Assembly (NCBI GenBank): GCA_003635305.1
Contig: PYJE01000200.1
Location: 27,171-89,769 of the forward strand
DNA length: 62,599 nucleotides
Source of the DNA: Candidatus Poribacteria bacterium
GTDB taxonomy: Bacteria > Poribacteria > WGA-4E > WGA-3G
Reading direction: 5' to 3'
Shown piece after piece: positions 1,671 to 61,550 of the stretch. How positions within the stretch are numbered: the first letter of the stretch is position 1; every line of letters begins with the position of its first letter. Made by a program: the position numbers and the translations under genes. The notes below the pieces were generated by a model. The model was not told the origin of the DNA. It made no database searches and worked only from the letters and a program-made list of their open reading frames with translations.

Positions 1671-4274
1671 TTGATGATGAAATATGAAAACACGCCGACG
1701 TTAGCAGCGGTGCTTTTAACCCTACTGCTAACCGCCACGCTAGCACTGACACCTGCTACCGCCCAGGATTACCAGCGGTGGGAATTACCCGAAGGTGCAA
1801 CCCTCCGCCTCGGCAAAGGCGGCATCAGCGGCGATATTACGTATTCTCCCGATGGTACCCTGCTCGCCGTTGCGACTTCCATCGGGATTTGGCTCTACGA
1901 TACAGCAACTTACAACGAAGTGGCACTGCTCACCAGACACACCGACCGTGTTTGGAGCGTTGCGTTCAGTCCGGATGGCACCACCCTTGCCTCGGGGAGT
2001 TCGGAAAACACCGTCAACACCGTCCGGTTGTGGGATATCGCCACCGGCAAAACCCGCCAAACCCTCCAAGGATACACCGGCAATGTCGAGAGCCTTGCGT
2101 TCAGTCCGGATGGACAAACACTCGCCAGTGGTGCTGGTTACGACTACCTCGTCCAATTGTGGAATGTCGCCGCCGGGGAACCCCGCCACTTCCTCCCCGG
2201 ACACACCGACTATGTTTCTAGCGTTGCGTTCAGCCCGGATGGACAAACGCTCGCCTCGGGGAGTCACGACCGCACCGTCCGGTTGTGGGATATCGCCACC
2301 GGCAAAACCCGCCAAATCCTCCGACACACCGGCAATGTCGAGAGCGTTGCGTTCAGTCCGGATGGACAAACACTCGCCAGTAGGAGTTGGAACGACCCCA
2401 TCGTCCGGTTGTGGGATATCGCCACCGGTGAAATCCGCCAAACCCTCCCCGGACACACCGACTATGTTTCTAGCGTTGCGTTCAGTCCGGATGGACAAAC
2501 ACTCGCCAGTGGCAGTTGGGATGAGACTATCCACCTGTGGGATACAAACACCGGCGACACGCTAACCACCCTCACCGGGCATACGGCCCCTGTCTATAGC
2601 GTCGTCTTCAGTCCGGATGGAAAAACACTCGCCAGTGGGAGTAGGGACGGTACCATCCGCCTGTGGGATGTCGCCACGGGCGACACACGCCACACCCGCA
2701 CCGGGCATACGAACTGGGTCGAGAGCGTTGCGTTCAGTCCGGATGGAAAAACACTCGCCAGTGGCAGTGGGGACGACACCGTCCGGCTGTGGAACGGCAC
2801 CACCGGTGAAATCCGCCACACTCTCACCGGACACACCAATTCGGTCACTAGCGTTGCGTTCAGTCCGGATGGAAAAACACTCGCCAGTGGCGGTGCTTAC
2901 GACCGCCTCGTCCGGCTGTGGGACGGCACCACCGGTGAACCTCGTCAAACCCTCCACGGACACACCGTCGGTGTTTGGAGCGTTGCGTTCAGTCCGGATG
3001 GACAAACACTCGCCAGTAGCAGTGAAGATGGCACCATCTGGCTGTGGAACATCACCACCGGCGCAATCCGCGACATCCTCCACGGACACACTTGGCACTG
3101 CGAGAGCGTTGCGTTCAGTCCGGATGGCACCACCCTTGCCTCGGGGAGTAGTTGGGACAAAACCGTCCGGTTGTGGGATATCGCCACCGGCGAGATACGC
3201 CGCACCCTCATCGGGCATGCCTACAGTGTCGTCTTCAGTCCCGATGGCAAAATACTCGCCATTGGGAGTTCGGACGGTACCATCCGCCTGTTGGATATGG
3301 CCTCGGGCGACACACGCTACACCCGCACCGGGCATACGGCCAGTGTCAATAGCGTCGTCTTCAGTCCGGATGGCACCACCCTCGCCAGTGGGAATGATGA
3401 CGCAACCATCCGCCTGTGGGATGTGGCTACCGGCAAGATGCTATACACCCTCACCGGGCATACGTCCGTTGTCTTAAGCGTCGTCTTCAGTCCGGATGGC
3501 ACCACCCTCGCCAGTGGGAGTGATGATGGCACGGTGCTCCTCTGGAACCTCGCGCCGCCTGCCGCCACACTCGAACCTGTCGCCAAAGATATCAACGGCG
3601 ATGGCGTTGTCAACATTCAGGACTTAACGCTCGTCGCCGCGCAGTTCGGGGAAACAGGCGAAGACATCCCTGCCGATGTCAACGGGGATGGCGTGGTTGA
3701 CATTCAGGATTTGGTGTTGGTGGCAGCGGCGTTTGGGGAGGCAGCCGCCGCGCCGATGTTCGCGCAGGCAGAGAACCTTGAGTTCGGAAGGGGCATCGAG
3801 ACCTGGAGGTCTCTCCTACAAGGAGAAAGCGTCGAGACCGGGGGCCTACAAGCGGCAGACGTGCAACAGTGGCTCACGCAGGCGCGGCAGATGCACCTCA
3901 CCACGCCCGCGTATCGGCGCGGCATTGCCGTGCTTGAGCAGTTCCTCGCCGCACTCAGTAGGAGGGACATCCCTGTCCCGAAAGAGACTGCATTGCTTGC
4001 CAACTACCCGAATCCGTTTAACCCGGAAACGTGGATACCGTACGAATTGGCGGCCGCCGCCGAGGTGACGCTGACTATCCACGCTGCAGATGGGAGACTC
4101 GTCCGCACTTTAGCATTAGGTCAACTACCCGCCGGCACCTACCAGAGCCGCTCTCGCGCCGCCTATTGGGATGGCCGGAATGCGCAGGGAGAACCGGTTG
4201 CAAGCGGTGTCTATTTCTATACGCTGCAAGCCGGAGATTTCTCGGCGACGCGGAAGATGGTGATTCGGAAGTAG
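1671..4274 (+). CDS. Secreted 14-blade WD40-repeat protein with two dockerin-like Ca-binding repeats and a T9SS/FlgD-Ig-like C-terminal domain
   Basis: An N-terminal signal (AAVLLTLLLTATLALTPATAQ) is followed by 14 (F/Y)SPDG..LAS..D.T(V/I)RLWD units. Then come DINGDGVVNIQDLTLVAAQFG and DVNGDGVVDIQDLVLVAAAFG. The C-terminus reads NYPNPFNPETWIPY...GVYFYTLQAGDFSATRKMVIRK. Confidence 0.9.
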   Translation: MMMKYENTPTLAAVLLTLLLTATLALTPATAQDYQRWELPEGATLRLGKGGISGDITYSPDGTLLAVATSIGIWLYDTATYNEVALLTRHTDRVWSVAFSPDGTTLASGSSENTVNTVRLWDIATGKTRQTLQGYTGNVESLAFSPDGQTLASGAGYDYLVQLWNVAAGEPRHFLPGHTDYVSSVAFSPDGQTLASGSHDRTVRLWDIATGKTRQILRHTGNVESVAFSPDGQTLASRSWNDPIVRLWDIATGEIRQTLPGHTDYVSSVAFSPDGQTLASGSWDETIHLWDTNTGDTLTTLTGHTAPVYSVVFSPDGKTLASGSRDGTIRLWDVATGDTRHTRTGHTNWVESVAFSPDGKTLASGSGDDTVRLWNGTTGEIRHTLTGHTNSVTSVAFSPDGKTLASGGAYDRLVRLWDGTTGEPRQTLHGHTVGVWSVAFSPDGQTLASSSEDGTIWLWNITTGAIRDILHGHTWHCESVAFSPDGTTLASGSSWDKTVRLWDIATGEIRRTLIGHAYSVVFSPDGKILAIGSSDGTIRLLDMASGDTRYTRTGHTASVNSVVFSPDGTTLASGNDDATIRLWDVATGKMLYTLTGHTSVVLSVVFSPDGTTLASGSDDGTVLLWNLAPPAATLEPVAKDINGDGVVNIQDLTLVAAQFGETGEDIPADVNGDGVVDIQDLVLVAAAFGEAAAAPMFAQAENLEFGRGIETWRSLLQGESVETGGLQAADVQQWLTQARQMHLTTPAYRRGIAVLEQFLAALSRRDIPVPKETALLANYPNPFNPETWIPYELAAAAEVTLTIHAADGRLVRTLALGQLPAGTYQSRSRAAYWDGRNAQGEPVASGVYFYTLQAGDFSATRKMVIRK

Positions 4275-4721
4275 GAGGGACCTCCTGGTCTCGATGCCCC
4301 GGTAGGCGCGGTTACAAACCGCGCCTACCAGAGGGTTACCATAGGGCGCGGTTTGAAACCGCGCCTACCAGAGGGTGCCCGTAGGGCGAGGGCCTGTCCC
4401 TCGCCACGCATCGATCTCCTTTTTCATGTGCACCGGCCCCACTCTGTAAGTCAAGATCGCCTGATCTTGACCCCTCTCCATTTTTTATCTTTGACATTTT
4501 TTGCACAATTTGCTAACATAACGCCATGGCTTAAATCACCGCCAACGCCTCTGGAAATCCTACTTGATCTGTTTGCGATCAGGCGATCGCAAACTACAGA
4601 GTGTCGATTTTTCATGTGCCCCGGCCCCACTCTGCAGGTCAAGATCGCCCGATCTTGACCTGTTTGCGAACAACTGGCACGTGTGCCAGATTTTCAGGCG
4701 AGCGCAAACTACAGAATAAGA
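4271..4721. repeat. Composite repeat module, copy 2 (direct repeat of 1113-1597)
   Basis: Same order of REP hairpins and the same TTGACA-17-TAACAT box (4491-4519). It begins at the TAG stop of the WD40 gene (the GTAGGAG of the REP). Confidence 0.85.
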
Positions 4722-9113: not shown

Positions 9114-9173
9114 GTAGGAGAGCCCTCCCGCGTCTCGATGCGTTAGGTATCGGGACAGGGATGTCCCTCCTAC
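9114..9173. repeat. Two REP hairpins between the DUF1553 and DUF1501 genes
   Basis: gtaggagagccctcccgcgtctcgatgc and cgggacagggatgtccctcctac. The second supplies the TAG stop of the 9170-12730 gene. Confidence 0.8.
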
Positions 9174-17300: not shown

Positions 17301-17756
17301 ATGAATGAAAAAGTGTTCATCGTCCATGGACAGGATGAAGCGGCAAAACTTGCTGTTGCTAGGTTCGTGGATAAAGTTGGCCCAAACTTGGAACCAGTCG
17401 TTCTTGACGAACAACCAAGTGAAGGCCGAACGATCATTCACAAGTTTAAAGAGCATGCCGCCGAGGCCTGCTTTGCGGTGGTTTTGCTGACACCCGACGA
17501 TGTTGGCGGACCGAAAGATAAACCAGACGAACGTAACCTGAGAGCTCGCCAAAACGTTGTCTTGGAACTCGGTTATTTCTTGTCGGAACTCGAACCTGAA
17601 CGAGTCTGTGTTCTCTATAAAGAAGGCGTTGAACTCCCCTCGGATATATATGGCTTAGTCTATGTCCCGATGGATAGGTTTGATGGTTGGCAACTGAAAC
17701 TAGCGAGGGAAATGAAGGCGGCGGGCCTCTCCATCGATCTCAACAGACTTTTTTAA
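17301..17756 (+). CDS. Stand-alone TIR-like nucleotide-binding domain protein (CAP12/PycTIR type, COG4271-like)
   Basis: VFIVHGQDEAAK...FAVVLLTPDDVG...RARQNVVLELGYF...RVCVLYKEGVELPSDIYG matches my recollection of the PF10137 block order. 151 aa, domain only. Confidence 0.75.
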   Translation: MNEKVFIVHGQDEAAKLAVARFVDKVGPNLEPVVLDEQPSEGRTIIHKFKEHAAEACFAVVLLTPDDVGGPKDKPDERNLRARQNVVLELGYFLSELEPERVCVLYKEGVELPSDIYGLVYVPMDRFDGWQLKLAREMKAAGLSIDLNRLF

Positions 17757-17884: not shown

Positions 17885-17914
17885 TTGACACCGTTTGCGG
17901 ATTAATGCTAGAAT
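17885..17914 (+). promoter_or_regulatory. Promoter candidate TTGACA-18 nt-TAGAAT upstream of the second TIR-like gene
   Basis: Read directly. Homologous to the box at 17160-17189. Confidence 0.4.
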
Positions 17915-17984
17915 TGGTTCAGTGTTGTCTTTATTTTTCACTGGCGACCGCCGCGCTACATCAGCGTGGAAATGGAGAGAGAGT

Positions 17985-18542
17985 ATGAATGCGAAGAATC
18001 ACGATGTGGGAGCCGCTCTCACAACACCGCCCCCGCTGCTGGGCAGCAGCAAAGCCGCATCTCTGAAAAAACATCGACGCGGCTTCGGCAACGATGTGTT
18101 CATCATCCATGGGAATGACGAGACAGCGAAAACTACCGTCGCGCGGTTCGTGGATAAATTGGGCTTAAAGCCTACTATTTTTCACGAAGAACTTCACAAC
18201 GGACAGCCAGCCCCAGGGAAGTTCAAGCGACTCGCGAACGATGCGGATTTCGCTATCGTCTTGCTTACGGATGACGATGTCGGCGCAGAAAAAGATAAAC
18301 CCGCACAGGATTTGATGCCTAGAGCGCGCGAAGACGTTATCTTTGAACTCGGATATTTCTGGGGAGAACTCGGACATGAACGAGTCTGTGTCCTCTATAA
18401 GGAAGGCATTGAACTGCCATCGGGCATTCAAGAACTTGGCGTTCCGCTGGAGAACACCGAAGCCTGGCAGACGAGATTAACCCGAGAAATGGAACAGGCA
18501 GGCCTCCCTGTCAACTCGGATAAAGCCCGCGATAACCGATAA
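17985..18542 (+). CDS. TIR-like domain protein (CAP12/PycTIR type), paralogue of 17301-17756 with a ~40-aa basic N-terminal extension
   Basis: VFIIHGNDETAK...FAIVLLTDDDVG...RAREDVIFELGYF...RVCVLYKEGIELPSG. The start is moved from the track's 17895 to the ATG at 17985, which has a GGAGAGAGAG RBS and lies downstream of the promoter box. Confidence 0.7.
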   Translation: MNAKNHDVGAALTTPPPLLGSSKAASLKKHRRGFGNDVFIIHGNDETAKTTVARFVDKLGLKPTIFHEELHNGQPAPGKFKRLANDADFAIVLLTDDDVGAEKDKPAQDLMPRAREDVIFELGYFWGELGHERVCVLYKEGIELPSGIQELGVPLENTEAWQTRLTREMEQAGLPVNSDKARDNR

Positions 18543-18554
18543 AGGAGAATGGAA

Positions 18555-18764
18555 ATGTCACATTATACCGCGCAAATCCAATACACCGGCGAATGGTGGA
18601 TTGGATGGATGCATGAGATTTCTGGCGTAAATTGCCAAGAACGGACGCGGGAAGAACTGTTGGAAAGCCTGCAATCCGCGCTTCGCGACATTTTGGAATA
18701 CGACGCGCAGCAAGCAAAACGCAGCGGGGAAGACGCGTTTGAGGTAGTTGACATCGCCGTATGA
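18555..18764 (+). CDS. HicB-family antitoxin-like small protein (UPF0150 fold)
   Basis: YTAQIQYTGEWWIGWMHEISGVNCQERTREELLESLQSALRDILEY fits the short HicB pattern. The AAGGAG RBS overlaps the stop of the TIR-like gene. An alternative ATG is at 18549. Confidence 0.55.
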   Translation: MSHYTAQIQYTGEWWIGWMHEISGVNCQERTREELLESLQSALRDILEYDAQQAKRSGEDAFEVVDIAV

Positions 18765-18823: not shown

Positions 18824-20914
18824 ATGCCTACTCTCGATTTCAGAGGCAAACAATTTATCTATTCGCATCACCTTACCGTGCCTTTTCGCACGCTGGAGGT
18901 AGATGCGGCTAAGTCGTTCAAAAGTCCACCCTTGGATGAGCACGTGCGAGGGACAGGCCCTCGCGCTACGGGCGACACCGGAGGAAACCATCTTTCCTTG
19001 GATGAGCACGTGCGAGGGACAGGCCCTCGCGCTACGGACGACACCGGAGGAAACCCTCCTTCCTTGGATGAGGACGTGCGAGGGACAGGCCCTCGCGCTA
19101 CGGACGGCCCCGGCGGAAACCATCTTTCCTTGGATGAGCACGTGCGAGGGACAGGCCCTCGCGCTACGGACGGCCCCGTCGGAAACCACCCTTCCTTGGA
19201 TGAGAATCTCATCATTCATGGCGATAATTTGCACGCGCTGAAGGCACTCCTCCCGAAATATGCAGGGAAAATTAAGTGCGTTTACATCGATCCGCCCTAT
19301 AACACCGGCAACGAAGGCTGGGTTTACAATGATAATGTCAACAGCCCGATGATGCAAGGGTGGTTGTCGAAAAACTCGCCGATTGACGTTGAAGATATGG
19401 AACGGCACGACAAGTGGCTGTGCATGATGTGGCCGCGGTTGCACCTCTTACGGGAGCTGCTCGCCGAAGATGGCGTGATTTTTATCTCCATTGACGATAA
19501 CGAGGTGCATCTCCTCCGCGCTATCATGGATGAGATTTTCGACGCGCAACGGATTTTCCCCGATGGAAACTTCGTCGGACAATTTGTCTGGGCGGCCGGA
19601 CGGAAAAATAACGCGCGGCTCTTCTCCAACTCGCACGATTATATCTTGTGCTACCTCAAAAATCACGAGTTCCTGAATCAATCGGGAACTACGTGGCGCG
19701 TTCGGAAACAGGGACTGGACGACATCTATAAAAAACACGCCGCACTCCAACGGAAACACGGACAAGATTTTGCGACAATTGAGGGGGAATTGGCGGCATG
19801 GTTTAAAGGGCTCCCCGATGGCCATTCGGCGAAACGGCACAGCGACTACTGTTATGTGGATGGCCGAGGCCCTTACAGTTCCTCAAATACATCCGCCCCA
19901 GGTGGCAATGGGGACAGGTATCCGGTTATCCATCCGACAACGGATAAGCCGTGCGCCATTCCCGCAGGCGGTTGGCGTTATACCCGACAAGAAATGGAGG
20001 CACTTATTGCGGATAACCGCGTCCACTTTGGGACTGATGAAACCTCTGTCCCCAGACGCAAACTTTATCTGAAGGAGACTGAATACGAAGTTCCCTACAG
20101 CGTCTTCTACAAAGATGGCCAAGGGGCAACGAAGCGATTGCGTAGACTTCTTGGGCAGCCTTTCCCGTTTCCGAAAGACGAGGAAGTGCTCAAACCGCTT
20201 TTTGAGGCAGTAACAGGACCGGACGACATTATCCTTGATTCCTTTGCTGGTTCTGGCACCACGGCGCACGCTGTCCTCGCGCTCAACAGAGAAGATGGCG
20301 GCAACCGTAAGTTCATCCTTGTTGAATGTGAAGACTACGCCGACACCATCACTGCTGAACGCGTCCGGCGCGTGATGAACGGCGTGGATTCTGCCAGAGA
20401 TGCAACTCTTCGGCAAGGCTTGGGGGGTTCGTTTACCTATTGCACTCTCGGCGGGACTATTGACGAGGAAGGGATGCTTACCGGTGAAACTTTACCGACT
20501 TATGAGAATTTGGCGAGTTATATTGCGTATGTGGCGACTGGGAGTTCGGTTGCGATGGGGCGAGCGCAACCTACAGGCAGAGATGCGATGGGGCGAGCGC
20601 AACCTACAGACTGCAAACCGGAACGGCATCGAGACTGGGAGAGCTCGCCTACCGGGCAAGAGGACTACTTTTTCGGTGAGACTGAGACCCTTCGTTTCTA
20701 TCTCATCTATGAACCAGACCTTGCCTTTTTGGAGAGCGATGCGGCGGCGTTAGATGGAAATCGGGCGGCGCGGATTGCGGAACAGTGTAAGGCATCGGGG
20801 AAGAAGGCGTATGTCTGGGGTGCGCATAAGTTTATGAGTCAGAAGGAGTTGACTCCGATGGGGATTACGTTTTGTCAGTTGCCGTATAATATTTATCCTA
20901 TTATGGATGGGTAA
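18824..20914 (+). CDS. mod: Type III restriction-modification methyltransferase (Mod; beta-class N6A/N4C MTase) carrying in-frame repeat insertions
   Basis: NLIIHGDNLHALKALLPKYAGKIKCVYIDPPYNTGNEGW (motif IV DPPY) lies N-terminal to ILDSFAGSGTTAHAV (motif I FxGxG). mod-then-res gene order. Confidence 0.85.
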   Translation: MPTLDFRGKQFIYSHHLTVPFRTLEVDAAKSFKSPPLDEHVRGTGPRATGDTGGNHLSLDEHVRGTGPRATDDTGGNPPSLDEDVRGTGPRATDGPGGNHLSLDEHVRGTGPRATDGPVGNHPSLDENLIIHGDNLHALKALLPKYAGKIKCVYIDPPYNTGNEGWVYNDNVNSPMMQGWLSKNSPIDVEDMERHDKWLCMMWPRLHLLRELLAEDGVIFISIDDNEVHLLRAIMDEIFDAQRIFPDGNFVGQFVWAAGRKNNARLFSNSHDYILCYLKNHEFLNQSGTTWRVRKQGLDDIYKKHAALQRKHGQDFATIEGELAAWFKGLPDGHSAKRHSDYCYVDGRGPYSSSNTSAPGGNGDRYPVIHPTTDKPCAIPAGGWRYTRQEMEALIADNRVHFGTDETSVPRRKLYLKETEYEVPYSVFYKDGQGATKRLRRLLGQPFPFPKDEEVLKPLFEAVTGPDDIILDSFAGSGTTAHAVLALNREDGGNRKFILVECEDYADTITAERVRRVMNGVDSARDATLRQGLGGSFTYCTLGGTIDEEGMLTGETLPTYENLASYIAYVATGSSVAMGRAQPTGRDAMGRAQPTDCKPERHRDWESSPTGQEDYFFGETETLRFYLIYEPDLAFLESDAAALDGNRAARIAEQCKASGKKAYVWGAHKFMSQKELTPMGITFCQLPYNIYPIMDG
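18930..19193. repeat. 4 x 66-bp tandem repeat with a GCGAGGGACAGGCCCTCGC REP hairpin, in frame inside mod
   Basis: Units start at 18930, 18996, 19062 and 19128. Each encodes LDEHVRGTGPRAT(G/D)..GGN..S, just before the conserved NLIIHGDNL block. Confidence 0.9.
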
Positions 20915-20962
20915 GGGATTTGGAACGTAGGGTGGGGGCCTGTCCCCCGCCGTGTTAGAGCT

Positions 20963-21195
20963 GCGAGGGACAGGCCCTCGCGCTACGATGAAGGGGCGTT
21001 TAGATGAGGCGGCGTTTAAGCGAGGACTAACGATGGCACGCAACGTTGCGAGGGACAGGCCCTCGCGCTACGATGAAGGGGCGTTTAGATGAGGCGGCGT
21101 TTAAGCGAGGATAACGATGGACCCAACGTTGCGAGGGACAGGCCCTCGCGCTACGATGAAGGGGCGTTTAGATGAAGAGGCGTTTAAGGAAGAAT
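20963..21195. repeat. ~2.8 x 85-bp tandem repeat (REP hairpin plus flank) filling the mod-res spacer
   Basis: gcgagggacaggccctcgcgctacgatgaaggggcgtttagatgaggcggcgtttaagcgagga..aacgtt starts at 20963, 21048 and 21131. The last copy runs into the res RBS. Confidence 0.9.
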
Positions 21196-21199
21196 AACT

Positions 21200-24037
21200 A
21201 TGGAACTTAAAGACTATCAACAGCAAGCATTAGATACCTTGGAACGCTATTTAGTTGCACTGAGGGAGGCGCGCCAGAAGGCAGAGGAACTCGCGGCGGC
21301 ATTAGCATCGCCGGAACTCCCTTCTGTCTTGCAAGAACAAGCGGCGGCCCTGGCAGCGGATGCTGAAGACTACCCGCGGAAAGCGTGGGAAAATCTCCGA
21401 GAAAAGGGAATGTTGCCGGGTATCGCCGCTCAGGTGCCCGAGTATATTCCTCGCGAAACCGCTTCTGGTGCACCTATCCCGCACGTCTGTCTCAAAGTGC
21501 CGACAGGTGGTGGGAAGACGTTGCTTGGGGTGGAAGCGGTGCGTCGTCTTAAACTCGGCAGAGGGTTTCTCTTATGGCTTGTGCCGACGAAAGCGATTTA
21601 TACGCAGACGTGGGATGCGTTTCGGAACCGCGAGCATCCGTATCGGCAGAGCTTGGATCGGGCATCAGGTGGCCGCGTCAAACTGCTCCAAAAAGACGAC
21701 AGGTTCACGAAGCGAGACGTTGAGGACTATCTCTGTGTTATGCTCCTCATGCTGCCTGCCACGAACCGCAATCGGAACAAGGAATTTCTCAAAATGTTCC
21801 GCGATAGCAGCGGCTATGCATCCTTTTTTCCGGTCGAAGACGACATTCGGGAACACCAGGCGTTATCGGAAAAATACCCAGACCTTGAGGTAGTAGGCGA
21901 GCTCGGAGGGGGCGCGGTTACAAACCGCGCCTACGAGGGAGAAGAGCTCGGAGGGGGCGCGGTTGCAAACCGCGCCTACGGGGGAGAAGAGCTTGGAGGG
22001 GGCGCGGTTGCAAACCGCGCCTACGGGGGAGAAGAGCGAGGAGTGGACGCGGTTGCAAACCGCGCCTACGAGGGAGGAGGGGGAGGAGAGTTCGGAGAGC
22101 CCTCCGGTTCCCGAACTGAACCGCATCAACTTCGCGGCATCCTCGCTGTTAATCGCGCGGATAGGTTGATTAAGCAGAGCCTTTTCAACGTGCTGAAATT
22201 GCTACGTCCGACGGTAATCTTGGACGAGGCGCACAAAGCATACGGGAGTCGAAATGCAGAGAACAATCAGCAGTTCGTGGCGGCTGTAAACCGTCTGAAT
22301 CCGCGCTTTGTGTTGGAGCTCTCTGCCACGCCGCAGCTGGGTATCAGCAACATCCTCGTGAACGTTTCCGGTGTCGCTCTCAAGGAAGAGGAGATGGTAA
22401 AACTCCCCATCCACCTGCGGAATTTTCCGGATTCGGATTGGCGGTATACCCTTGCGCAGACGAAGGCGGAACGTGATAGCCTTGAGGAAGCGGCAAGGCA
22501 GTTTCAGACTACCGATGCCCGTTATATCCGTCCCATCGCGGTGATTCGGGTAGATAGGACGGGCAAAAACCAGCGCGATGGCGTTCGGGTGCATGCCGAA
22601 GATGCCCGCGAGGAACTGATGAACGCCCTCGGTGTGCCAGCATCGCAAATCAAGGTGAAATCGTCGGAGCAAGACGAACTCGCTGGTATTGAACTGCTCA
22701 GTCCGTTTTGCCCGGTTCGCTACATTATCACGAAAGATGCGCTGAAGGAGGGATGGGATTGTCCGTTCGCTTATCTGTTGGCACTTTTGGATAACACCAC
22801 GGCGAAGACAGCGATGACGCAGCTCATTGGCAGAGTGATGCGGCAGCCGCATGCCCGCGCCACAAACGTCGCGCAATTGGATAGCTGCTATATCTACTGC
22901 TTCAACCAAAAAGTCGGCGATGCCGTTGGCAATGTCAAGAAGGGGTTAGAGGCGGAAGGGTTAACCGGGCTTTCCGATTACGTTGAGAGTTCGGCGACGG
23001 TGCGTGTTCAGAAAACCGTTCAACGCAGGCAGGAATACCGTGAAGTGGACATCTTTTTACCGCGCGTGTTGCATAAGGAGGGACGCGGCTGGCGAACCCT
23101 CAATTATGAGCGCGACATCTTGAGCGCGCTTGACTGGTATCAGATTGGTGCGGTGGAGCCGGTGGATTTGGAATCGCAGGGGCTCTTTCAGGAGATTCGT
23201 GCCACTATCCATCTGCAGGACGAGGCGGTGATTGAAAAGGCGCGGCAAGACGGTGCCGATGCTGGTTTGGAGCTCGCCTTTTTCGTGCGGCGTTTAGCGG
23301 ATGTCGTGCCGAATCCGTGGCAATCTGCGCGCATTGTCAAAGCAACGTTTAAACTCTACCGCGAACAAGGGATTTCTGAAGAGACCTTGGTTCAGAATAG
23401 GCTCTATCTCTCGGAGGTGTTGAAACACCGCCTGCGCGAACGCATTGAGCAGTTGTCTGAAAACATCTTCCGTGAGAAGTTGGCGACTCACAAAATTCAG
23501 TTTCGCCTGGAGACAGATGTGGCGTTAAACTACGAGTTAGAAAAAACGCTTGAGGTTAACCTGTCGCAGGGTGCCAGACCATTGACGCGGCCGCATGGAG
23601 ATGCGTTGCAACTGAACCTATTTGAGCCGGTTTTCGAGGCGGAATTCAACAATTTAGAGAAAGATTTCGCGCTCTATCTGGACGAAAAATCGGCGATTCA
23701 GTGGTGGCATCGTATCGCGGCGAAGCAGGGATATTTCTTGCAGGGGTGGCGGCGCGAGCGGGTTTATCCCGATTTCATCGCCTGTCTCCAGCGGCGAAAC
23801 CATCATCCGCGACGATTGCTCATCTTTGAGACGAAGGGACAGCAGCTTGAGGGCAACAGCGATACGACTTACAAGCAGCGGTTGATTGCGACTTTAGAGG
23901 AGGCGTATCGGAATTCAAGTTCGTATGGTATGATGAACGCTGCCGGCCCGAATGATTCGGCGATGTCGTTTCGGATGCTGTTTGAAAATAGTTGGCGGGT
24001 GGAGGTTAATGAGGTGATTGGGGCTCGCTGCAGGTAG
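21200..24037 (+). CDS. res: Type III restriction enzyme Res subunit (SF2 DEAH helicase + C-terminal PD-(D/E)xK nuclease) carrying an in-frame repeat insertion
   Basis: LKVPTGGGKT (Walker A), VILDEAHKA (DEAH), QLIGRVMRQ (motif VI), and C-terminal YPDFIA...LLIFETKGQ nuclease motif. 945 aa. Confidence 0.85.
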   Translation: MELKDYQQQALDTLERYLVALREARQKAEELAAALASPELPSVLQEQAAALAADAEDYPRKAWENLREKGMLPGIAAQVPEYIPRETASGAPIPHVCLKVPTGGGKTLLGVEAVRRLKLGRGFLLWLVPTKAIYTQTWDAFRNREHPYRQSLDRASGGRVKLLQKDDRFTKRDVEDYLCVMLLMLPATNRNRNKEFLKMFRDSSGYASFFPVEDDIREHQALSEKYPDLEVVGELGGGAVTNRAYEGEELGGGAVANRAYGGEELGGGAVANRAYGGEERGVDAVANRAYEGGGGGEFGEPSGSRTEPHQLRGILAVNRADRLIKQSLFNVLKLLRPTVILDEAHKAYGSRNAENNQQFVAAVNRLNPRFVLELSATPQLGISNILVNVSGVALKEEEMVKLPIHLRNFPDSDWRYTLAQTKAERDSLEEAARQFQTTDARYIRPIAVIRVDRTGKNQRDGVRVHAEDAREELMNALGVPASQIKVKSSEQDELAGIELLSPFCPVRYIITKDALKEGWDCPFAYLLALLDNTTAKTAMTQLIGRVMRQPHARATNVAQLDSCYIYCFNQKVGDAVGNVKKGLEAEGLTGLSDYVESSATVRVQKTVQRRQEYREVDIFLPRVLHKEGRGWRTLNYERDILSALDWYQIGAVEPVDLESQGLFQEIRATIHLQDEAVIEKARQDGADAGLELAFFVRRLADVVPNPWQSARIVKATFKLYREQGISEETLVQNRLYLSEVLKHRLRERIEQLSENIFREKLATHKIQFRLETDVALNYELEKTLEVNLSQGARPLTRPHGDALQLNLFEPVFEAEFNNLEKDFALYLDEKSAIQWWHRIAAKQGYFLQGWRRERVYPDFIACLQRRNHHPRRLLIFETKGQQLEGNSDTTYKQRLIATLEEAYRNSSSYGMMNAAGPNDSAMSFRMLFENSWRVEVNEVIGARCR
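21899..22078. repeat. 4 x 45-bp tandem repeat with a GGCGCGGTTnCAAACCGCGCC REP hairpin, in frame inside res
   Basis: Units start at 21899, 21944, 21989 and 22034. Each encodes ELGGGAV(T/A)NRAY(E/G)GE, between helicase motifs I and II. Confidence 0.9.
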
Positions 24038-24152
24038 CAATAACCTAGACAAATGCCGATAAATCTGCTATCACCTATATCAACTGCTTTTTTAATGTGA
24101 CGTTTCTATAAAAGGGGTATAATATAGGTACATGCAAAACAGATGAGTTAAG

Positions 24153-24293
24153 ATGGGTGAGGCCGCAGAATTACTCGGCACCACCCGTGAAACGCTGCGT
24201 CGCTGGGAAGAGACTGGCGAATGGCTACCCGCGCGGCAGACGAAAGGCGGGACGCGCTACTATGCCACAGGCGACTTGATGGGCCTGAAATGA
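24153..24293 (+). CDS. MerR/excisionase-type HTH peptide (46 aa), probably the N-terminal remnant of an IS607 serine-recombinase TnpA
   Basis: Below the track's length cutoff. My translation is MGEAAELLGTTRETLRRWEETGEWLPARQTKGGTRYYATGDLMGLK. This is the HTH pattern that precedes the resolvase domain in IS607 TnpA, and no catalytic domain follows. Confidence 0.55.
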   Translation: MGEAAELLGTTRETLRRWEETGEWLPARQTKGGTRYYATGDLMGLK

Positions 24294-24352
24294 AGCCCTC
24301 ACAGAGGCACACAAAGCCTCTCAACCGAAGCAGATAGAGTTGGAGTTGGACG

Positions 24353-25564
24353 ATGGCACTGCTAGCCCACAAGACAGCATTGCAACCGAATAAGGCGCAG
24401 AAGAAGGTGCTGAACCAGCACTGCGACTTCGCGCGCAACGCCTATAATGCCGCCCTGTCCGATTTTAAAGCAGGTTTGGATAACGGCGAATTCCGTTCGG
24501 TTTACGATTTGAAGAAGCTCTTCAACGCACGCAAGCGTGAGGCGTTTCCCGAAATCGATGGAAACCTGTCCATGAACGCAGGCAAGAATGCTATCCACAA
24601 TTTCCACGATGCTGTCAAACGCTGGCAGTCAGGACAGAACAACTTCCCGAAGCGGAAGAAGCATAACAGCCGTTCATCATTCCAAATTGATAACGGCGTT
24701 GGCAGTGTCAAGGTATCGGAGGATGGAAACCAGCACGTCATCCTCCCGAAAATCGGTAAGGTTCGCCTCGCTGAGAAACCACGCTGGACAGGTAAAGTCA
24801 GGCGTGCTGTCATTTCACGGACAGCTCACAGGTGGCAGATTAGCATGCTATTTGAGGTGGACGAACCCGAACCCCCCGATACATCACGTCTTCCCGCTGA
24901 AGGATGTGATGTCGGTATCAGCCAATTGGCAACCCTCAGCGATGGCACGACTTTTGAAAATCCACGCGCACTCCGTGTGCAAGAACGTAAACTGAAACGC
25001 CTGAACCGCAGTCTCTCCCGCAAAACATACCGCAGTGGCGGTTGGTGGAAAGCGAAGGAACTGCTAGCACGGTTGCATTTGCGAATTCGGCATATTCGGA
25101 TGGATGCACATCATCAGGCGACGCACAGGATATTGCAAGGCATTTCCGCGCTAGGCATAGAAAGCCTATCCGTCAAAGGACTGATGAAGAATCGCAAATT
25201 GAGCAAGGCATTAGCCGATGCCAGTCTCGGCGGTTTCCTCGTGAAACTGAAATATAAGGCGGTTCGGCGTGGCATTCGCATTGTGGAGGCAGACAGATTC
25301 TGGCCCTCTACCAAGCGGTGTAGCTCCTGTGGATATGTGAAAAAGAAAGTGTCATTATCCGAACGTGACTACCATTGCGGTGTCTGTGGTTTTCAAGCCG
25401 ACAGAGACGTGAATGCCGCGATAAACCTTAAGCAACTCGCTTCCAGCACGGATGAGCGTCTAAACGCCGTTGGAGCGTCTATAACACCTACCGCGGTAGG
25501 CTGGACGCGTGGAAGGCGGAAAGTCAAACCGAACCAAACGCTAATTGATTTCGCTACTGCGTAA
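24353..25564 (+). CDS. tnpB: TnpB (OrfB) RNA-guided endonuclease, RuvC + zinc ribbon, apparently intact
   Basis: GCDVGISQLATLSDG (RuvC-I D), LGIESLSVKGLMKN (RuvC-II E), CSSCGY...CGVCGF (Zn ribbon) and ADRDVNAAINL (RuvC-III D). 403 aa. Confidence 0.9.
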   Translation: MALLAHKTALQPNKAQKKVLNQHCDFARNAYNAALSDFKAGLDNGEFRSVYDLKKLFNARKREAFPEIDGNLSMNAGKNAIHNFHDAVKRWQSGQNNFPKRKKHNSRSSFQIDNGVGSVKVSEDGNQHVILPKIGKVRLAEKPRWTGKVRRAVISRTAHRWQISMLFEVDEPEPPDTSRLPAEGCDVGISQLATLSDGTTFENPRALRVQERKLKRLNRSLSRKTYRSGGWWKAKELLARLHLRIRHIRMDAHHQATHRILQGISALGIESLSVKGLMKNRKLSKALADASLGGFLVKLKYKAVRRGIRIVEADRFWPSTKRCSSCGYVKKKVSLSERDYHCGVCGFQADRDVNAAINLKQLASSTDERLNAVGASITPTAVGWTRGRRKVKPNQTLIDFATA

Positions 25565-26691: not shown

Positions 26692-26880
26692 GGCGTTCGG
26701 ATAGGGTTTTGGATTCGATGATGTTTTCTACGTCATCCGTCATTGACGTTGTCAATGACTCCGTTCACTCATGCCGCTTTTTTGTTGTTCGCATGGCGTT
26801 CGGATAGGGTTTTGGGTTCGATGATGTTTTTGACGTAATCCGTCATTGACGTTGTCAATGACTACGTTCACTCATGTTGC
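26659..26880. repeat. 2 x 103-bp tandem leader module (minus orientation) plus a 21-bp partial unit, between the GMC stop and the dcyD-like start
   Basis: gttgttcgcatggcgttcggatagggttttgg.ttcgatgatgtttt..acgt.atccgtcattgacgttgtcaatgact.cgttcactcatg occurs at 26681 and 26784. It contains the dyad GTCATTGAC-aac-GTCAATGAC. Confidence 0.9.
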
Positions 26881-28434
26881 AATTGTCCTTACAATTTGAT
26901 GCGCGACGTAGTCTGCCAAAGCGGCGATAGTTAACGTCGGCGGCACGCCAATCGAAGCAGGAAACAGACTCGCATCGGCGACGAAGAGGTTCCGGACAGC
27001 GCGCGCTTCCCCGGAAAAAGTGACGACAGAAGTCGCCGCATCTTCGCCCATGCGGAGGGTGCCTTGCGGATGACTCGATGCCAGCATCACATCGTTCGGC
27101 ACAACCCCGCGCTGACAGATAATTTCCAAGTCTGCCTCCGTTTTGATGCGAACGTGTTGTGTGTAAGGCATCAAAATTTCTCTTGCACCCGCGGCGAATA
27201 GCAGGCGCGCGGCGTTGATTGCCCCTTCAATCAAAACCGCTTTATCCTCGCGGTTTAAGCGATACGCAATGCGCGGCGTGCCATCGCGATTGAGAGACAC
27301 GCGGCCTGATGTCTTGTCATGCAAGAGGACGAGGAGCGCGGCGATGTGCCGGTAGCGTTCCATCAATTCGCGATGGCTTTTCCCAAATCCCGGTAGACTC
27401 GCCGCGACTATCATCTGTGAGCCAAATGCCGGCATGAGAAGGTATCCGCTGTCGGTGTGAGGTGGGTTACAAACCCTGTCTGCGGTGGAGATATGCGCGC
27501 TTTGTAAGCGCGCATCTTCCACATCCAAAAACTCATCAATATAATAACTTTGCGGAATGCCGAGGTGTCCATCAATAATTTCATCAAAAATGCCGCCGAC
27601 AAACACCGCGGGATGCAGATGCAGATTACGTCCGACATGTCGGTTTAGTTCTGGCAGACGGCTTTTTAACCAGAGTTGCGGCGAATTAATCGCCCCGGCG
27701 GCTAAGACGACTGCCTTGCTGCGGATAGTTAGTTCGCCTGAGGGCAAACGCGCCGAAACGCCGACTGCTTTCCCATTTTCAACCAGCACTGCCTCGGCGA
27801 GGCAGTTGCTGTAAAGTCGCGCGCCGGCCGCAAGTGCCAACGGGATATAGGTGACAGCCATGCTTTGTTTGCCTGCAGCGCGCTTGGAAACCGCGCCTAC
27901 CGGTTCCGTGGGCGTAGAGTTTGGGCATCCAAAGAGACACCTCGCGCCGCACGCAGCGCACGCGCCGCGATTATGCCGTTGGACAGTCCCGCGCCACCCC
28001 ATCGCCTCGCAACCGCGGCGGATCACGGCATTAAGGCGGTTCACTTCAGACTCCTCAATTTGTTTAACGTTAAGCGTTTCTTCCACGCGCGCTAGAGCAG
28101 AAGAAAGTTCTGGGATACCCCATCTGTCCAATAACGGTTGCGGCGGCCGCACCGCGTAACAGAAATTATGCACCGTTGAACCGCCGACACCTCTGCCTTG
28201 CGAGATAAGAATGGCACCGTCGCGCGTCCGACGCAAGCCGCTATCCCAAAAAAGGCGGCGCAACATGTCGGGTTCATATTCGGTGAAGGTGCTCGGTTCG
28301 TGATGCTCGCCTGCCTCTAAAATGATGACAGAAATCCCAGCTTCGGCGAGCTCTTTGGCGACAACCGCGCCGCCCGCTCCGGAACCGATAACGCATACGT
28401 CGGTGGTTTCTCGCGCGTGCCTACTTTTGTTCAC
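26872..28434 (-). CDS. GMC-family FAD-dependent oxidoreductase
   Basis: DVCVIGSGAGGAVVAKELAEAGISVIILEAG FAD fold, and a C-terminal GMC block (HPQGTLRMG). The track ORF extends to 28578 but would overlap the TPR gene by 158 nt. The GTG at 28434 leaves a 14-nt overlap. Confidence 0.8.
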   Translation of the reverse strand: MNKSRHARETTDVCVIGSGAGGAVVAKELAEAGISVIILEAGEHHEPSTFTEYEPDMLRRLFWDSGLRRTRDGAILISQGRGVGGSTVHNFCYAVRPPQPLLDRWGIPELSSALARVEETLNVKQIEESEVNRLNAVIRRGCEAMGWRGTVQRHNRGACAACGARCLFGCPNSTPTEPVGAVSKRAAGKQSMAVTYIPLALAAGARLYSNCLAEAVLVENGKAVGVSARLPSGELTIRSKAVVLAAGAINSPQLWLKSRLPELNRHVGRNLHLHPAVFVGGIFDEIIDGHLGIPQSYYIDEFLDVEDARLQSAHISTADRVCNPPHTDSGYLLMPAFGSQMIVAASLPGFGKSHRELMERYRHIAALLVLLHDKTSGRVSLNRDGTPRIAYRLNREDKAVLIEGAINAARLLFAAGAREILMPYTQHVRIKTEADLEIICQRGVVPNDVMLASSHPQGTLRMGEDAATSVVTFSGEARAVRNLFVADASLFPASIGVPPTLTIAALADYVAHQIVRTIAT

Positions 28435-29584
28435 GATGTGTCTCGTTTCGTGAGCGATAGCGTTGGTAAGCCTTCGCCGCCTTCTCCTGCTCGCCGATTT
28501 GGCGATAAGCGTTCGCCAGATTTCGGTAAACTTGTGGATTATTCGGAGCCAAACGCGCCGCAGTTTCAAACTGCACAATCGCCGGCCGAGGTTTCTCCAA
28601 CATCATATAGACAACGCCGAGGCTATTCCGATACACCGCGCTTTCGGGGCGCGTTTCAACGAGATGCCCGAATACCTCACGCGCTTCAGTGTAAGTCTCC
28701 GTTTGCAGATAACTATAGCCGAGCAGTTCATACCCTTTCTCGTCGCGCGGCGCGATAGCGACACACGCCTTGAGTTCCGCGATAGCGGCATCCCACGCTT
28801 CTCTTTTGATAAGGAGCTCGGCGAGTTGATAGCGGCGTTCTAACCCCTGGGGACTATCCTGAATTGCCCGCCGAAGGCTGGCGAGTTGCTCCTCCTCTTG
28901 CGTCAGTATCTCAAAAGTGCGCAGGGCCTTCCTCCCTTTTGCAATCTCACCGGTGCGGAGATAACAGTTTCCGAGGTTAAAGTGTGCCTTCGCGTGCCGT
29001 TTTTCGCGTTGAATCACTGCTTCAAAGTGTGGCATCGCTTGCGCAAAGTCACCTTTCTGGAAATAGGCGAGCCCGAGCAGATACCGCGCCTCTGTGTCCG
29101 ATGCTTGCTTCAATTGCTGGATAGCGTCCTCAATGCGGTTTTGACGGAGGTAGGCGGTGCCGAGCAGTCTTCGCGCCCGTGGCAAATCTGGCTGCACCTG
29201 CAAGGCGCGTTCCAGCGGTGATATTGCCGCTTTCGCTTGTCCTAGTCCGCTCAGGTATGCTTCACCGAGGCGGCAGTGTGCATCGGCGAAATCTGCATCG
29301 AACCGAATAGCCGTTTGGAACGCTTGAACAGCCTTTCTCCACTGCGATTGTTGTCCGTAGCACAGCCCGAGTTGGTAGTGTGCTGCCGCGAACGATGGCT
29401 CAAGTGCTATCGCGCGCTGAAATTCGGCAAAAGCCTGCGCTGAGGAGAGTGCTTGCATCCCGGCCTGATAGGCGCGCTGCGCCTCGCTCACGTCGGCGCA
29501 GTAGACGGAACCTTCCAGTCCTGATATGGATAAGAAGACTATGAAGATAAAGCGGATAAAAGTAGTTTTCATTTTGGTGTGCAA
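28421..29584 (-). CDS. Secreted tetratricopeptide (TPR) repeat protein
   Basis: Signal peptide, then repeated A..Y..A...P....A...LG..Y 34-mers throughout. 387 aa. Confidence 0.8.
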   Translation of the reverse strand: MHTKMKTTFIRFIFIVFLSISGLEGSVYCADVSEAQRAYQAGMQALSSAQAFAEFQRAIALEPSFAAAHYQLGLCYGQQSQWRKAVQAFQTAIRFDADFADAHCRLGEAYLSGLGQAKAAISPLERALQVQPDLPRARRLLGTAYLRQNRIEDAIQQLKQASDTEARYLLGLAYFQKGDFAQAMPHFEAVIQREKRHAKAHFNLGNCYLRTGEIAKGRKALRTFEILTQEEEQLASLRRAIQDSPQGLERRYQLAELLIKREAWDAAIAELKACVAIAPRDEKGYELLGYSYLQTETYTEAREVFGHLVETRPESAVYRNSLGVVYMMLEKPRPAIVQFETAARLAPNNPQVYRNLANAYRQIGEQEKAAKAYQRYRSRNETHREQK

Positions 29585-31474: not shown

Positions 31475-32503
31475 ATGAAAGAGAGCAGAGTCGGTATTAT
31501 CGGTTGTGGTGGCATTGCGGGCGGCAAACACCTCCCCGGCCATCAAAGCGTCAAAGGCGTTTCGATCATCGCCGCCTGTGACATTGACGAAGCGCGCGCG
31601 AAGGCGTTCGCCAAAAAGCATGAAATTCCGCACGTCTTCAGCGATTACGAAAAACTGGTGGAGATGGAAGAACTCGATGCGGTGAGCGTCTGCACGCCGA
31701 ACAATTTCCACGCCGGTCCGACTATCGCCGCGCTTAACGCGGAAAAACACGTGCTTTGCGAAAAGCCTATCGCGGGGAATGCAGTTGATGGACAAGCGAT
31801 GGTAGATGCGCAAAAAGCAAGCGGTAAAGTCCTCCAGATCGGGTTGCAATCCCGCTTCCGCGCCGCATCCCGCACGCTACGCAAACTCTACGATGAAGGC
31901 TTCTTCGGCGACATCTACTACGCTCGCGCCATGGCGATGCGGCGACGCGGTGTCCCGGCATCTCCATCGTTCTTAAGCAAAGCGATTGCCGGCGGCGGAC
32001 CGCTTATTGACATCGGCGTGCATATCCTTGATGTGCTACTTTGGATGATAGGCTGCCCAAAACCGGTTGAGGCGTTCGGGATGACAGCGAAGAAATTCGG
32101 GCATCGCGCCGATGTTATCAACCCGTGGGGCAAATGGGACCCGGAGCAATTTGAAGTGGAAGACTTCGCGATGGGAACTATCCGCTTTGAAGGCGGGCTC
32201 ACCGTCACGTTAGAGACAGCGTGGGCATCGCATATCGCGAACATCGGCGGCACCTTCTTCATGGGAGAGCTGGCGGGCGCGACTTACGAACCCCTCCAAA
32301 TCTACCTTGACAAGAAGGACGAGATGGTGAACTACACCCCTGAACTCCTCAAAGGATTGCCGGGTGAATTTGAATCGTTCCACACTGCAATCCGCGAAGG
32401 ATTGTCGTCACCGGTGCCAGCCGAAGAGGTGCTGAATGTCGCGAAAATCTTCGACGCGCTCTATGAATCGGCGAGAATCGGCCGCTCCGTGCCGATTCCG
32501 TAA
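31475..32503 (+). CDS. Gfo/Idh/MocA family oxidoreductase
   Basis: MKESRVGIIGCGGIAGGKHL after an AAAGGAG RBS, and VLCEKPIAGN. The track's start at 31427 lies inside the REP array. Confidence 0.8.
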   Translation: MKESRVGIIGCGGIAGGKHLPGHQSVKGVSIIAACDIDEARAKAFAKKHEIPHVFSDYEKLVEMEELDAVSVCTPNNFHAGPTIAALNAEKHVLCEKPIAGNAVDGQAMVDAQKASGKVLQIGLQSRFRAASRTLRKLYDEGFFGDIYYARAMAMRRRGVPASPSFLSKAIAGGGPLIDIGVHILDVLLWMIGCPKPVEAFGMTAKKFGHRADVINPWGKWDPEQFEVEDFAMGTIRFEGGLTVTLETAWASHIANIGGTFFMGELAGATYEPLQIYLDKKDEMVNYTPELLKGLPGEFESFHTAIREGLSSPVPAEEVLNVAKIFDALYESARIGRSVPIP

Positions 32504-32995
32504 GATATTCCGCGCGGCCGTTAATCCGTGCGCGCTTACAACGCGCGCCTACGGTGGGGCCGATGCCGTAAGATATTCCGCGCGGCCGTTAATCCGTGCG
32601 CGCTTACAACGCGCGCCTACGGTGATGCCGATGCCGTAAGATATCCCGCGCGGCTGTTAATTCGTGCGCGCTTACAACGCGCGCCTACGGTGATGCCGAT
32701 GCCGTAAGATATCCCGCGCGGCCGTTAATCCGTGCGCGCTTACAAAACGCGCCTACGGTGATGCCGATTACGTAAGATATCCCGCGCGGCCGTTAATCCG
32801 TGCGCGCTTACAACGCGCGCCTACGGTGATGCCGATGCCGTAAGATATCCCGCGCGGCCGTTAATCCGTGCGCGCTTACAACGCGCGCCTACGGTGATGC
32901 CGATGCCGTAAGATATCCCGCGCGGCCGTTAATCCGTGCGCGCTTACAACGCGCGCCTACGGTGGGGCCGATGCCGTAAGATATCCCGCGCGGCC
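32498..32995. repeat. 7.3 x 68-bp tandem repeat (minisatellite) with an embedded REP hairpin; not CRISPR
   Basis: Units start at 32498, 32566, 32634, 32702, 32770, 32838, 32906 and 32974. The unit is ccgtaagatat.ccgcgcggccgttaatccgtgcgcgcttacaacgcgcgcctacggtg..gccgatg. The first unit includes the stop codon of the preceding gene. Confidence 0.95.
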
Positions 32996-61428: not shown

Positions 61429-61550
61429 CATCCTTTGCGCAGTCAACCTAGTAAAAATCGCTGAGCAATAAAAGAACAGAAACCTGTAGGAGAGCCCCCC
61501 GCTCTGGATGCTCTATCGGGTGCATTTGCATAAGAACTCGGAGACAAACG

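Follow-up and report, generated by a model that had tools for sequence, protein, structure and literature searches.

Rickettsia palindromic elements (RPEs) are selfish elements which, as Ogata et al. reportedly described in 2000, lie in frame in functional proteins and are tolerated in surface loops. They are about 100–150 bp long and occur mostly as single insertions, and to our knowledge they are not known as variable-number arrays. Repeats of another kind are found in restriction-modification (R-M) genes: in the phasevarions, repeats of 1–5 nt in type III mod genes shift the frame on and off and change rapidly in length between strains, and in the type I HsdS subunit the number of a 4-aa TAEL repeat (EcoR124I versus EcoR124II) sets the spacing of the target-recognition domains and changes the specificity. 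The subject of this work is a 62,599-nt stretch of DNA from Candidatus Poribacteria, a sponge symbiont, in which the res gene of a type III R-M pair carries four tandem units built around a hairpin of the repetitive extragenic palindromic (REP) type; the whole stretch is referred to as the window, all coordinates are positions in it, and the sequences compared are labelled P#### (alleles) and L### (loci). Closest to this hairpin are the GTAG-tagged REPs, GC-rich hairpins with a 9–13 bp stem and a 3-nt loop that are present in hundreds of copies, mostly intergenic and often clustered (PMC3733652). Intragenic GTAG/CGTC REPs have been found in frame in genes of known function, helicase and repair genes being favoured, and clusters of them encode 43–82 aa (PMC3733652). 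As for the host protein, the accessory loops of EcoP15I Res (4ZCF) are structured and contact DNA or Mod (PMC4490356). It is likely that the array in res arose from a selfish GTAG-type REP that is tolerated in a permissive RecA1 loop of a functional Res and has been locally amplified.

In-frame REP array in the res gene

The res gene (21200..24037, plus strand) encodes a type III restriction subunit (Res) of 945 aa. Tandem Repeats Finder, run on the window, detected within it a repeat at 21899..22076 with a period of 45 bp, 4.0 copies, 93% matches, no indels and a score of 300, and from this output, the sequence and a unit table the array was delimited as four head-to-tail units (21899..22078, plus strand) starting at 21899, 21944, 21989 and 22034, in agreement with an earlier note on this DNA. 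Each unit is made of the REP hairpin, a CTAC tag and a 21-nt spacer and is translated into 15 aa, ELGGGAV[T/A]NRAY.GE (in general form ELGGGAVxNRAYxGE). According to the list of open reading frames (ORFs) and the translation, the 945-aa frame is open throughout with all four units in frame, and the insert lies between Walker A (21500–21520) and ILDEAH (22217–22234), both of which the earlier note had also stated. The insert size of about 75 aa given there was too large; relative to the closest alleles without units, Res has gained 62 aa net (945 versus 883).

Units 1–3 contain a perfect hairpin, GGCGCGGTT-(A/G)CA-AACCGCGCC, followed by TAC and closed by a 3-nt loop (NCA). Located by sequence and pattern scan, and listed without a strand, these are hairpin 1 at 21911..21931 (GGCGCGGTT-ACA-AACCGCGCC), hairpin 2 at 21956..21976 and hairpin 3 at 22001..22021 (both GGCGCGGTT-GCA-AACCGCGCC); hairpin 4 at 22046..22066 (GGACGCGGTT-GCA-AACCGCGCC) has one mismatch, in GGACGCGGTT, with the loss of one outer stem pair. 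Folding of one res unit hairpin as DNA gave −12.3 kcal/mol. The earlier note was correct on a hairpin in each unit but not on its '.caa' loop, as the final A pairs in the stem; a hairpin pattern with a 4-nt loop had no match in the window, and the pattern with a 3-nt loop matched.

The window (62.6 kb) contains 28 copies of the core of this hairpin, GCGCGGTTnnnAACCGCGC, at up to two mismatches, where shuffles that preserve the dinucleotides lead one to expect 0.11. At no more than one mismatch the number is 19, and 14 of these are intergenic though only about 13% of the window is non-coding, and this family, here family 1, is at that threshold the commonest among the four hairpin families defined in the window, as had been claimed. 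Most intergenic copies read (G)GTAG-hairpin-CTAC(C), the consensus with flanks being ccGGTAG-GCGCGGTT-nnn-AACCGCGC-CTACCgg, and an intergenic copy with a 13-bp stem folded as DNA at −17.3 kcal/mol (z = −8). Hairpin plus TAC of the res unit is a 24-nt exact match to intergenic copies, for example the one at 4305, and therefore the res units derive from the dispersed REP. The exact 23-base pattern occurs in at least 76 stretches, with only Poribacteria-type genomes among the matches listed. The names carried by homologues and by REP-bearing genomes identify the organism as Candidatus Poribacteria. Judged by its GC-rich stem-loop, its GTAG tag and its dispersed, mainly intergenic copies, the hairpin can be assigned, as a sequence-based classification, to the GTAG-tagged REPs as defined by Di Nocera et al. 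2013 (PMC3733652). An Rfam scan of the window gave no family match, and a literature search on REPs in Poribacteria gave nothing specific.

Two composite REP clusters of the window (1117–1250 and 4290–4400) are near-identical, with the fixed order family 3, family 1, family 1, family 2; they resemble mosaics of the bacterial interspersed mosaic element (BIME) kind, and the adjacency of families 3 and 1 is seen inside res as well. The largest REP array of the window (32490–32995) is intergenic and has 7.4 copies of 68 bp at 95% matches with a GCGCGCTTACAACGCGCGCCTAC hairpin variant.

The assignment of the gene to type III Res, already made in the earlier note, was based on Pfam (ResIII), on PADLOC (REase_III PDLC03653, E 9.8e-232, the match being interrupted exactly at the insert and so falling into two stretches), on the adjacent mod gene and on the AlphaFold model, whose best fold match in the PDB was EcoP15I Res (4zcf_C, E 1.3e-10, probability 1.00), a protein of only about 14% sequence identity; sequence searches of the PDB gave only weak colinear motif matches to EcoP15I. 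The mod gene is located upstream of res in the same orientation, and the pair is syntenic in nine related loci. Among 95 homologues, P101, T102, G105, K106 and T107 of Walker A (helicase motif I, PTGGGKT; 21500..21520, plus strand) and D342 and E343 of helicase motif II (ILDEAH; 22217..22234, plus strand; strand 338–342 in the model) are invariant, and motifs III and VI, SATP and QLIGRVMRQ (QxxGRxxR), are conserved. The C-terminal motif YPDF ... FETKG (23765..23839, plus strand), with D858 invariant and P857, E877 and K879 at least 90% conserved in the same homologues, points to a putative PD-(D/E)xK nuclease domain.

The ratio of non-synonymous to synonymous substitution rates (dN/dS, Nei-Gojobori) of the window res against L001, L002 and L003 was 0.11–0.12 at a dS of 0.49–0.57, with values of 0.07–0.12 on each side of the insert, and the frame is intact in 25/25 full-length res alleles, without the frameshifts that the earlier note had considered. 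As judged from these ratios, the rest of Res is under purifying selection. A large insert within RecA1, together with a TnpB element directly downstream that changed the last Res residues, might still suggest a decaying pseudogene, inactivated by repeat invasion and with a frame that is open by coincidence. This is exceedingly improbable, given the low dN/dS on both sides of the insert, the intact helicase and nuclease motifs, a model that is confident outside the loop, an intact Mod and dozens of alleles that are all in frame; indeed, dN/dS, motifs and fold taken together indicate that res is not a pseudogene.

The position of the units was examined in an alignment of 20 homologues, where they fall between the invariant PDLE and KQSLFNV blocks, in the least conserved part of Res. 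The segment L229–S327 measures 97 aa in the window Res versus 8–33 aa (median 16) in 94 homologues of 29–89% identity, and Walker A and DExH are 235 aa apart versus 145–171 aa; the loop is short and variable in the homologues, and its length varies across the Res family. When 1.84 billion cluster representatives were searched, nearly all full-length matches (820–880 aa) were split, with the second stretch starting from query residue ~320–325, and thus the insert is not conserved in distant homologues, a point that the earlier note had left to be checked.

In the AlphaFold model built from 95 diverse homologues (predicted local distance difference test, pLDDT, 85.4; predicted template modelling score, pTM, 0.73; a model from 59 close homologues, with pLDDT 53, was not used), residues 237–308 are the sole long low-confidence segment (pLDDT 29–46) and have no secondary structure. 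They connect helix 216–225 with helix 328–335, the latter leading into the DEAH strand 338–342. The insert is predicted to form a disordered surface loop of the RecA1 lobe, between the motif Ib/Ic region and motif II. EcoP15I Res has an accessory 'Ic-extension' loop (aa 198–211) between motif Ic and motif II (PMC4490356), to which the position of the insert may roughly correspond.

An insert of a different location, 13–14 aa in length (LHLAPFASQTLLFK), was noted in the Res homologues P0041, P0068 and P0072 at alignment columns 473–485, in the helix that follows motif III. A shorter version, of 6 aa, is present in P0008, and closer relatives of the window Res have none; this insert may be another repeat-derived insertion.

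Comparison of the insert DNA with three syntenic loci (L001, L002, L003) disclosed two layers. The closest unit-free allele, that of L003, reads GAG ACG GTA GGA GAG followed by CCC TCC TTG TCT CAA ACT, and the window reads GAG GTA GTA GGC GAG, then the array ending in GGA GAG, then CCC TCC GGT TCC CGA ACT. On the 5' side, GTAGGCGAG (21893..21901, plus strand) is what remains of the 5' part of an older REP-like element with a GTAG tag (family 3), GTAGGCGAGC recurring at 1649 and, on the minus strand, at 20643 and 31434. On the 3' side, the older linker GGGEFGEPSGSRTEPH (22079..22126, plus strand), which has a counterpart in unit-free alleles, includes what is left of the 3' part of that element (GAGAGCCCTCCG at 22095–22106). 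The L003 linker holds an intact GGTAGGAGAGCCCTCC, a 16-mer that is also part of the dispersed element at 1117; its GTAG-started 15-mer is found again at 9118 and 58111 (minus strand), with a near copy at 61490. In the unit-free allele P0005 the counterpart of the linker is GEPSLSQTPGHPH. Because of these counterparts, the GEPSGSRTEPH segment must be older than the array, and of what the earlier note had said about it the REP fragment stands (family 3, GGTAGGAGAGCCCTCC), but not its inclusion in the new insert. By this comparison the hairpin array is nested inside an older family-3 REP-derived element.

The units end in GGCGAG or GAAGAG, which are the native bases just 5' of the array, and this repetition of the native flank argues for local tandem duplication of the REP with its flank and not for repeated independent insertions. 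In some of the alleles with units, 21 nt of the old linker have since been lost (EPYQLRG versus EPSGSRTEPHQLRG), and in L002 the old linker has been amplified three times with a 27-bp period, as seen by eye.

From these data, it seems likely that a GTAG-tagged REP lodged in a naturally short, variable and solvent-exposed RecA1 loop of the type III Res, at a landing site that already held a fragment of another REP-like element, and that the hairpin was then amplified head to tail along with a few native flanking nucleotides (GGCGAG). Replication slippage or unequal recombination between hairpin units would be the likely cause of amplification and contraction, and the extra peptide would form a disordered Gly-rich loop tolerated by the enzyme; the same process would have acted on Mod and on the mod-res spacer. 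The route of amplification and the neutrality of the insert are what we infer, and it is an appealing but unsupported variant of this scheme that a transposase adds or removes exact periods from one GTAG site to the next. Since the 45-bp period is divisible by three and no stop is present in the frame used, Res remains intact at any copy number.

Copy number and conservation of the units

The alleles compared belong to the 90%-identity protein cluster of the window Res, and the number of units in them ranges from one to six. Six units are present in alleles of 965 aa (P0121, P0126, P0129), five in one of 950 aa (P0123), four in those of 945 aa (P0001) and 935 aa (P0122, P0133), three in one of 920 aa (P0128), two in one of 905 aa (P0131) and one in alleles of 900–903 aa (P0125, P0132, P0134); a neighbouring Res cluster includes alleles with 1, 2 and 3 units. 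Outside the array the res core is 96–97.5% identical at the nucleotide level among alleles with 1–6 units, so the variation in unit number for which the earlier note had proposed a check is present among assembled alleles at least 90% identical in protein sequence.

The C-terminus of Res in the TnpB-bearing lineage is GARCR versus GEGYAAGE. P0125, with one unit, and the window allele, with four, share this altered GARCR end, which is attributed to the TnpB element found just downstream in the window; if so, copy number has changed even inside that sub-lineage.

A single sample, ERZ25070167, yields alleles with 6, 6, 5 and 1 units, three of them on contigs of 1.5–5.9 Mb and the 1-unit allele on a contig of 335 kb. 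This bears on the possibility that the tandem units were generated by mis-assembly of REP-containing reads, which could be suspected since assemblies of short reads are frequently broken or collapsed at REP arrays and since contig L005 starts 41 nt upstream of the mod-res array at 20962. However, L005 (3665 nt), deposited separately by the Joint Genome Institute (JGI), is identical to window positions 20922–24586, contigs of 0.3–5.9 Mb from other samples, apparently long-read, have 1–6 units at the same codon, and the sequences of the units vary from allele to allele while keeping a consistent register. Arrays of different length on long contigs of one sample exclude an assembly artefact, whose probability is next to negligible.

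In order to see which part of the unit is conserved, 37 units from nine alleles were tabulated. The stem core, made up of 16 positions of which six are third-codon positions, was off consensus at 3 of 592 sites, and the CTAC tag (C30 with TAC, reading GTAG on the bottom strand; C30 counts towards the stem as well) at 3 of 148, position 30 being C and positions 31–33 TAC in at least 36 of the 37 units. For the 21 spacer positions the count was 121 of 777; most of these deviations fall on the first or second codon position, the variation being mostly non-synonymous, and the spacer residues change freely (L/Q/R/F/I/P, then G/E/K/R/W). The first two loop bases vary (A/G/T/S in the protein), as do, without compensation, the two outermost 5' stem bases. 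The contrast of stem versus spacer within the same units is about 30-fold, on counts from units that share descent and are thus not independent observations. A core frozen at synonymous sites beside a spacer drifting non-synonymously indicates a constraint on the DNA element and not on the peptide, and the tabulation shows that the REP core, apparently rather than the peptide, is what is maintained. Conversion from other genomic REPs, intrastrand correction of the palindrome or recognition by a REP transposase may account for the upkeep of the hairpin.

The same table speaks to a function at the protein level, by which the repeat peptide (GAVANRAY-Gly-rich) would be a selected module that serves, for instance, as a tether or in an interaction and merely resembles a REP. 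Such a module would agree with the frame kept in every full-length allele and with N-R-A-Y and G-A-V being nearly invariant as amino acids, but third codon positions share in the invariance and the conserved stretch coincides exactly with the REP core, the spacer residues changing freely. Moreover, the copy number ranges from 0 to 6, the region is predicted to be disordered, the module is absent from nearly all homologues, and 24-nt identity to intergenic REPs cannot be coincidence. A selected peptide is therefore very improbable.

Several points weigh against a selfish REP tolerated in a functional Res, the shared descent of the tabulated units being one of them. The near-invariance of the hairpin at synonymous sites exceeds what a neutral passenger predicts and leaves room for a function of the hairpin, and the tolerance of the insert is read from sequence conservation. 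Pfam scans of the ~50 window ORFs gave no Y1 transposase of the REP-associated type, and tblastn with E. coli RayT against 0.79 Mb of Poribacteria DNA gave no credible match. Last, in other REP-bearing Poribacteria loci (n = 76, 585 kb) 0 of 87 family-1 hairpins are inside long frames; intragenic placement of family 1 is rare, and its concentration at the window locus is unusual. Matches of RayT at E 2–9 in the tblastn search were discarded, being spurious ORFs on inspection.

REPs in mod, in the mod-res spacer and in neighbouring genes

The type III methyltransferase (Mod, 696 aa; 18824..20914, plus strand) was recognised by Pfam N6_N4_Mtase, PADLOC MTase_III (E 1.2e-168) and the DPPY motif at 19289–19300. 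The MTase_III match begins at residue 120, after an in-frame array of 66 bp × 4.2 copies (18930..19204, plus strand; Tandem Repeats Finder) that encodes 22-aa units LDEHVRGTGPRATxxxxxNxxS. Its hairpin is of family 2, GCGAGGGACAGGCCCTCGC plus GCTAC, and encodes VRGTGPRAT, and every unit re-copies the native SLDE codons. The array has 0–4 copies among alleles, and Mod is 696 aa in the window versus 587 aa in the unit-free L003 allele. Both subunits of the R-M system thus carry amplified in-frame REPs of different families, as the earlier note had recognised. A second in-frame Mod insert (VAMGRAQPTGRDAMGRAQPTDCKPERHRDWESSPTGQ; 20549..20659, plus strand) is a mosaic of REP-derived pieces, including GGTAGGCGAGCTCTCCC on the minus strand, and this C-terminal mosaic is more variable among alleles than the N-terminal array.

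Between the two genes, Tandem Repeats Finder detected an array of 83 bp × 2.9 copies with the family-2 hairpin (20962..21204, plus strand). It repeats the ribosome-site and start context of res (TAACnATGG) three times at 83–85 bp spacing, the last copy being the real start and the upstream copies opening short decoy ORFs. Across nine related loci the mod-res spacer is 171–585 bp long and contains different REP families.

REPs in frame are also present in the gene of a GMC oxidoreductase (26872–28578, minus strand) near the R-M pair. One, of family 1 (PVGAVSKRAAG; 27878..27896, minus strand), is shared by the window, L001 and L002 and is absent from L003, and another, of family 1b (ARLQSA; 27495..27513, minus strand), is likewise absent from L003. 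L001 and L002 have in the 27495 region a family-2 REP as well (RGTGPRPT), which L003 lacks. The phenomenon thus extends beyond the R-M pair. Within genes, the array periods are 45 and 66 bp (Tandem Repeats Finder) and 27 bp (L002, by eye), all multiples of three, versus 40, 38, 25, 29, 67, 88, 83, 47/48, 68, 23 and 65 bp for intergenic REP arrays, as expected of a reading-frame filter.

Where the window mod has its 66-bp array, L001 (4150–4180) and L002 (4070–4100) have a G8 homopolymer (GATGGGGGGGGTAGG). With G8 the conserved 37-aa Mod N-terminus is out of frame with the methyltransferase body, and with G7 it is in frame; the tract looks like a classical phase-variation tract or a short-read homopolymer error. 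Classical phase variation by the Res and Mod arrays themselves was considered and rejected, as periods of 45 and 66 bp keep the frame and the alleles with 1–6 units are all in frame.

With arrays in res, mod and the spacer, it may be asked whether they form an adaptive contingency or tuning locus, kept because copy number alters the R-M behaviour between strains. The tuning may operate through the length of the loop, the assembly of Mod with Res, mRNA stability or the rate of translation, and a hairpin-specific recombinase may cut at GTAG sites, so that exactly one period is gained or lost each time. Three independent variable arrays within one R-M operon, alleles of different copy number that coexist in one sample, a hairpin and CTAC tag kept at synonymous sites while the peptide drifts, the frame-shifting G8 tract of the L001 and L002 mod genes at the same place and the triplication of the res start context by the intergenic array are all in line with it. 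However, periods that are multiples of three in the in-gene arrays cannot switch the gene on and off, the same kind of in-frame REP is found in a housekeeping-type (metabolic) enzyme, the GMC oxidoreductase, the insert is predicted to be disordered and lies outside every conserved motif, and no recombinase was found by Pfam scans of the window or by tblastn of 0.79 Mb, so that a tuning locus is conceivable but unlikely. A more specific form of the proposal is decidedly improbable, namely a REP-based diversification device in which a GTAG-specific recombinase of single-stranded DNA, a REP-associated tyrosine transposase (RAYT) or a relative, adds or removes exact 45- or 66-bp periods and thereby tunes the balance of restriction and modification between co-resident symbiont strains; if it were true, hairpin and tag would be kept at synonymous sites because selection favours their continued recognition.

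Other features of the locus were recorded. A TnpB gene (IS605 OrfB / Cas12f-like; 24353–25564) without TnpA lies between res and the PALP gene in the window lineage only, and a short MerR-like helix-turn-helix ORF is located 5' of it (L005). In L083 (9107–13361), L084 (9089–13398) and L087 (8920–14465) the res-PALP junction is occupied by SIR2_2 / HATPase_c_4 genes and a 493-aa ORF instead of TnpB, and this junction behaves as a variable defence-gene hotspot. Just 5' of the R-M genes are two adjacent TIR-domain proteins (17301–17756 and 17895–18542; Pfam CAP12-PCTIR_TIR, PADLOC candidate PDC-S35), which are present in some related loci and absent from L001, L082 and L083. Between them and mod is a small conserved ORF (18549–18764; 71 aa, 63–87 aa in relatives) without a Pfam match, whose sequence looks, to our eye, possibly HicB-like. 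Further away, at 1671–4274, an 867-aa WD40 beta-propeller protein is encoded whose repeats are visible as DNA tandem arrays of 126/252/381 bp; eukaryote-like repeat proteins are typical of sponge symbionts.

Comparison with known systems

A selfish REP tolerated in Res would make this locus a natural experiment in which palindromic DNA enters a motor enzyme without breaking it, and in which the pace of insert evolution can be followed: one species-level population holds Res alleles with 0–6 extra units of 15 aa and Mod alleles with 0–4 extra units of 22 aa. For R-M biology, it suggests a RecA1 loop able to tolerate at least 90 extra residues. The frozen hairpin beside a drifting peptide is a case of a DNA-level element within an ORF that could be misread as protein constraint, and in annotation, length outliers or 'low-complexity' stretches in Poribacteria proteins can be REP-derived.

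With the GTAG REPs (PMC3733652) the window element shares a short GTAG-tagged hairpin, a 3-nt loop and dispersed copies, some of them in frame; it differs in that Poribacteria are outside that survey and in its direct tandem arrays of fixed period, which affect both R-M subunits. With the RPEs it has in common an in-frame insert in a gene under purifying selection and a location in a surface loop, predicted in the case of the window, whereas the REP is shorter, unrelated in sequence and present in variable-number arrays; a literature search on structural work on RPEs gave nothing usable. Length-variable repeats in type III R-M genes are the feature shared with phasevarions, but periods of 45 and 66 nt never shift the frame, and a G8 tract is present in the L001 and L002 mod genes and not in the window. 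As in HsdS with its TAEL repeats, an in-frame, allele-variable repeat is found in an R-M subunit, here in the disordered loop of the motor subunit. EcoP15I Res has the same colinear helicase motifs and lineage-specific excursions of RecA1, while the insert described here is repeat-derived and predicted to be disordered. Thus, intragenic GTAG REPs and RPEs are known precedents, and the window array is a clear example of a known phenomenon; what is new is the host phylum, the strict tandem-array form, the series of 1–6 (Res) and 0–4 (Mod) copies in one population, and the conservation of the hairpin and not of the peptide.

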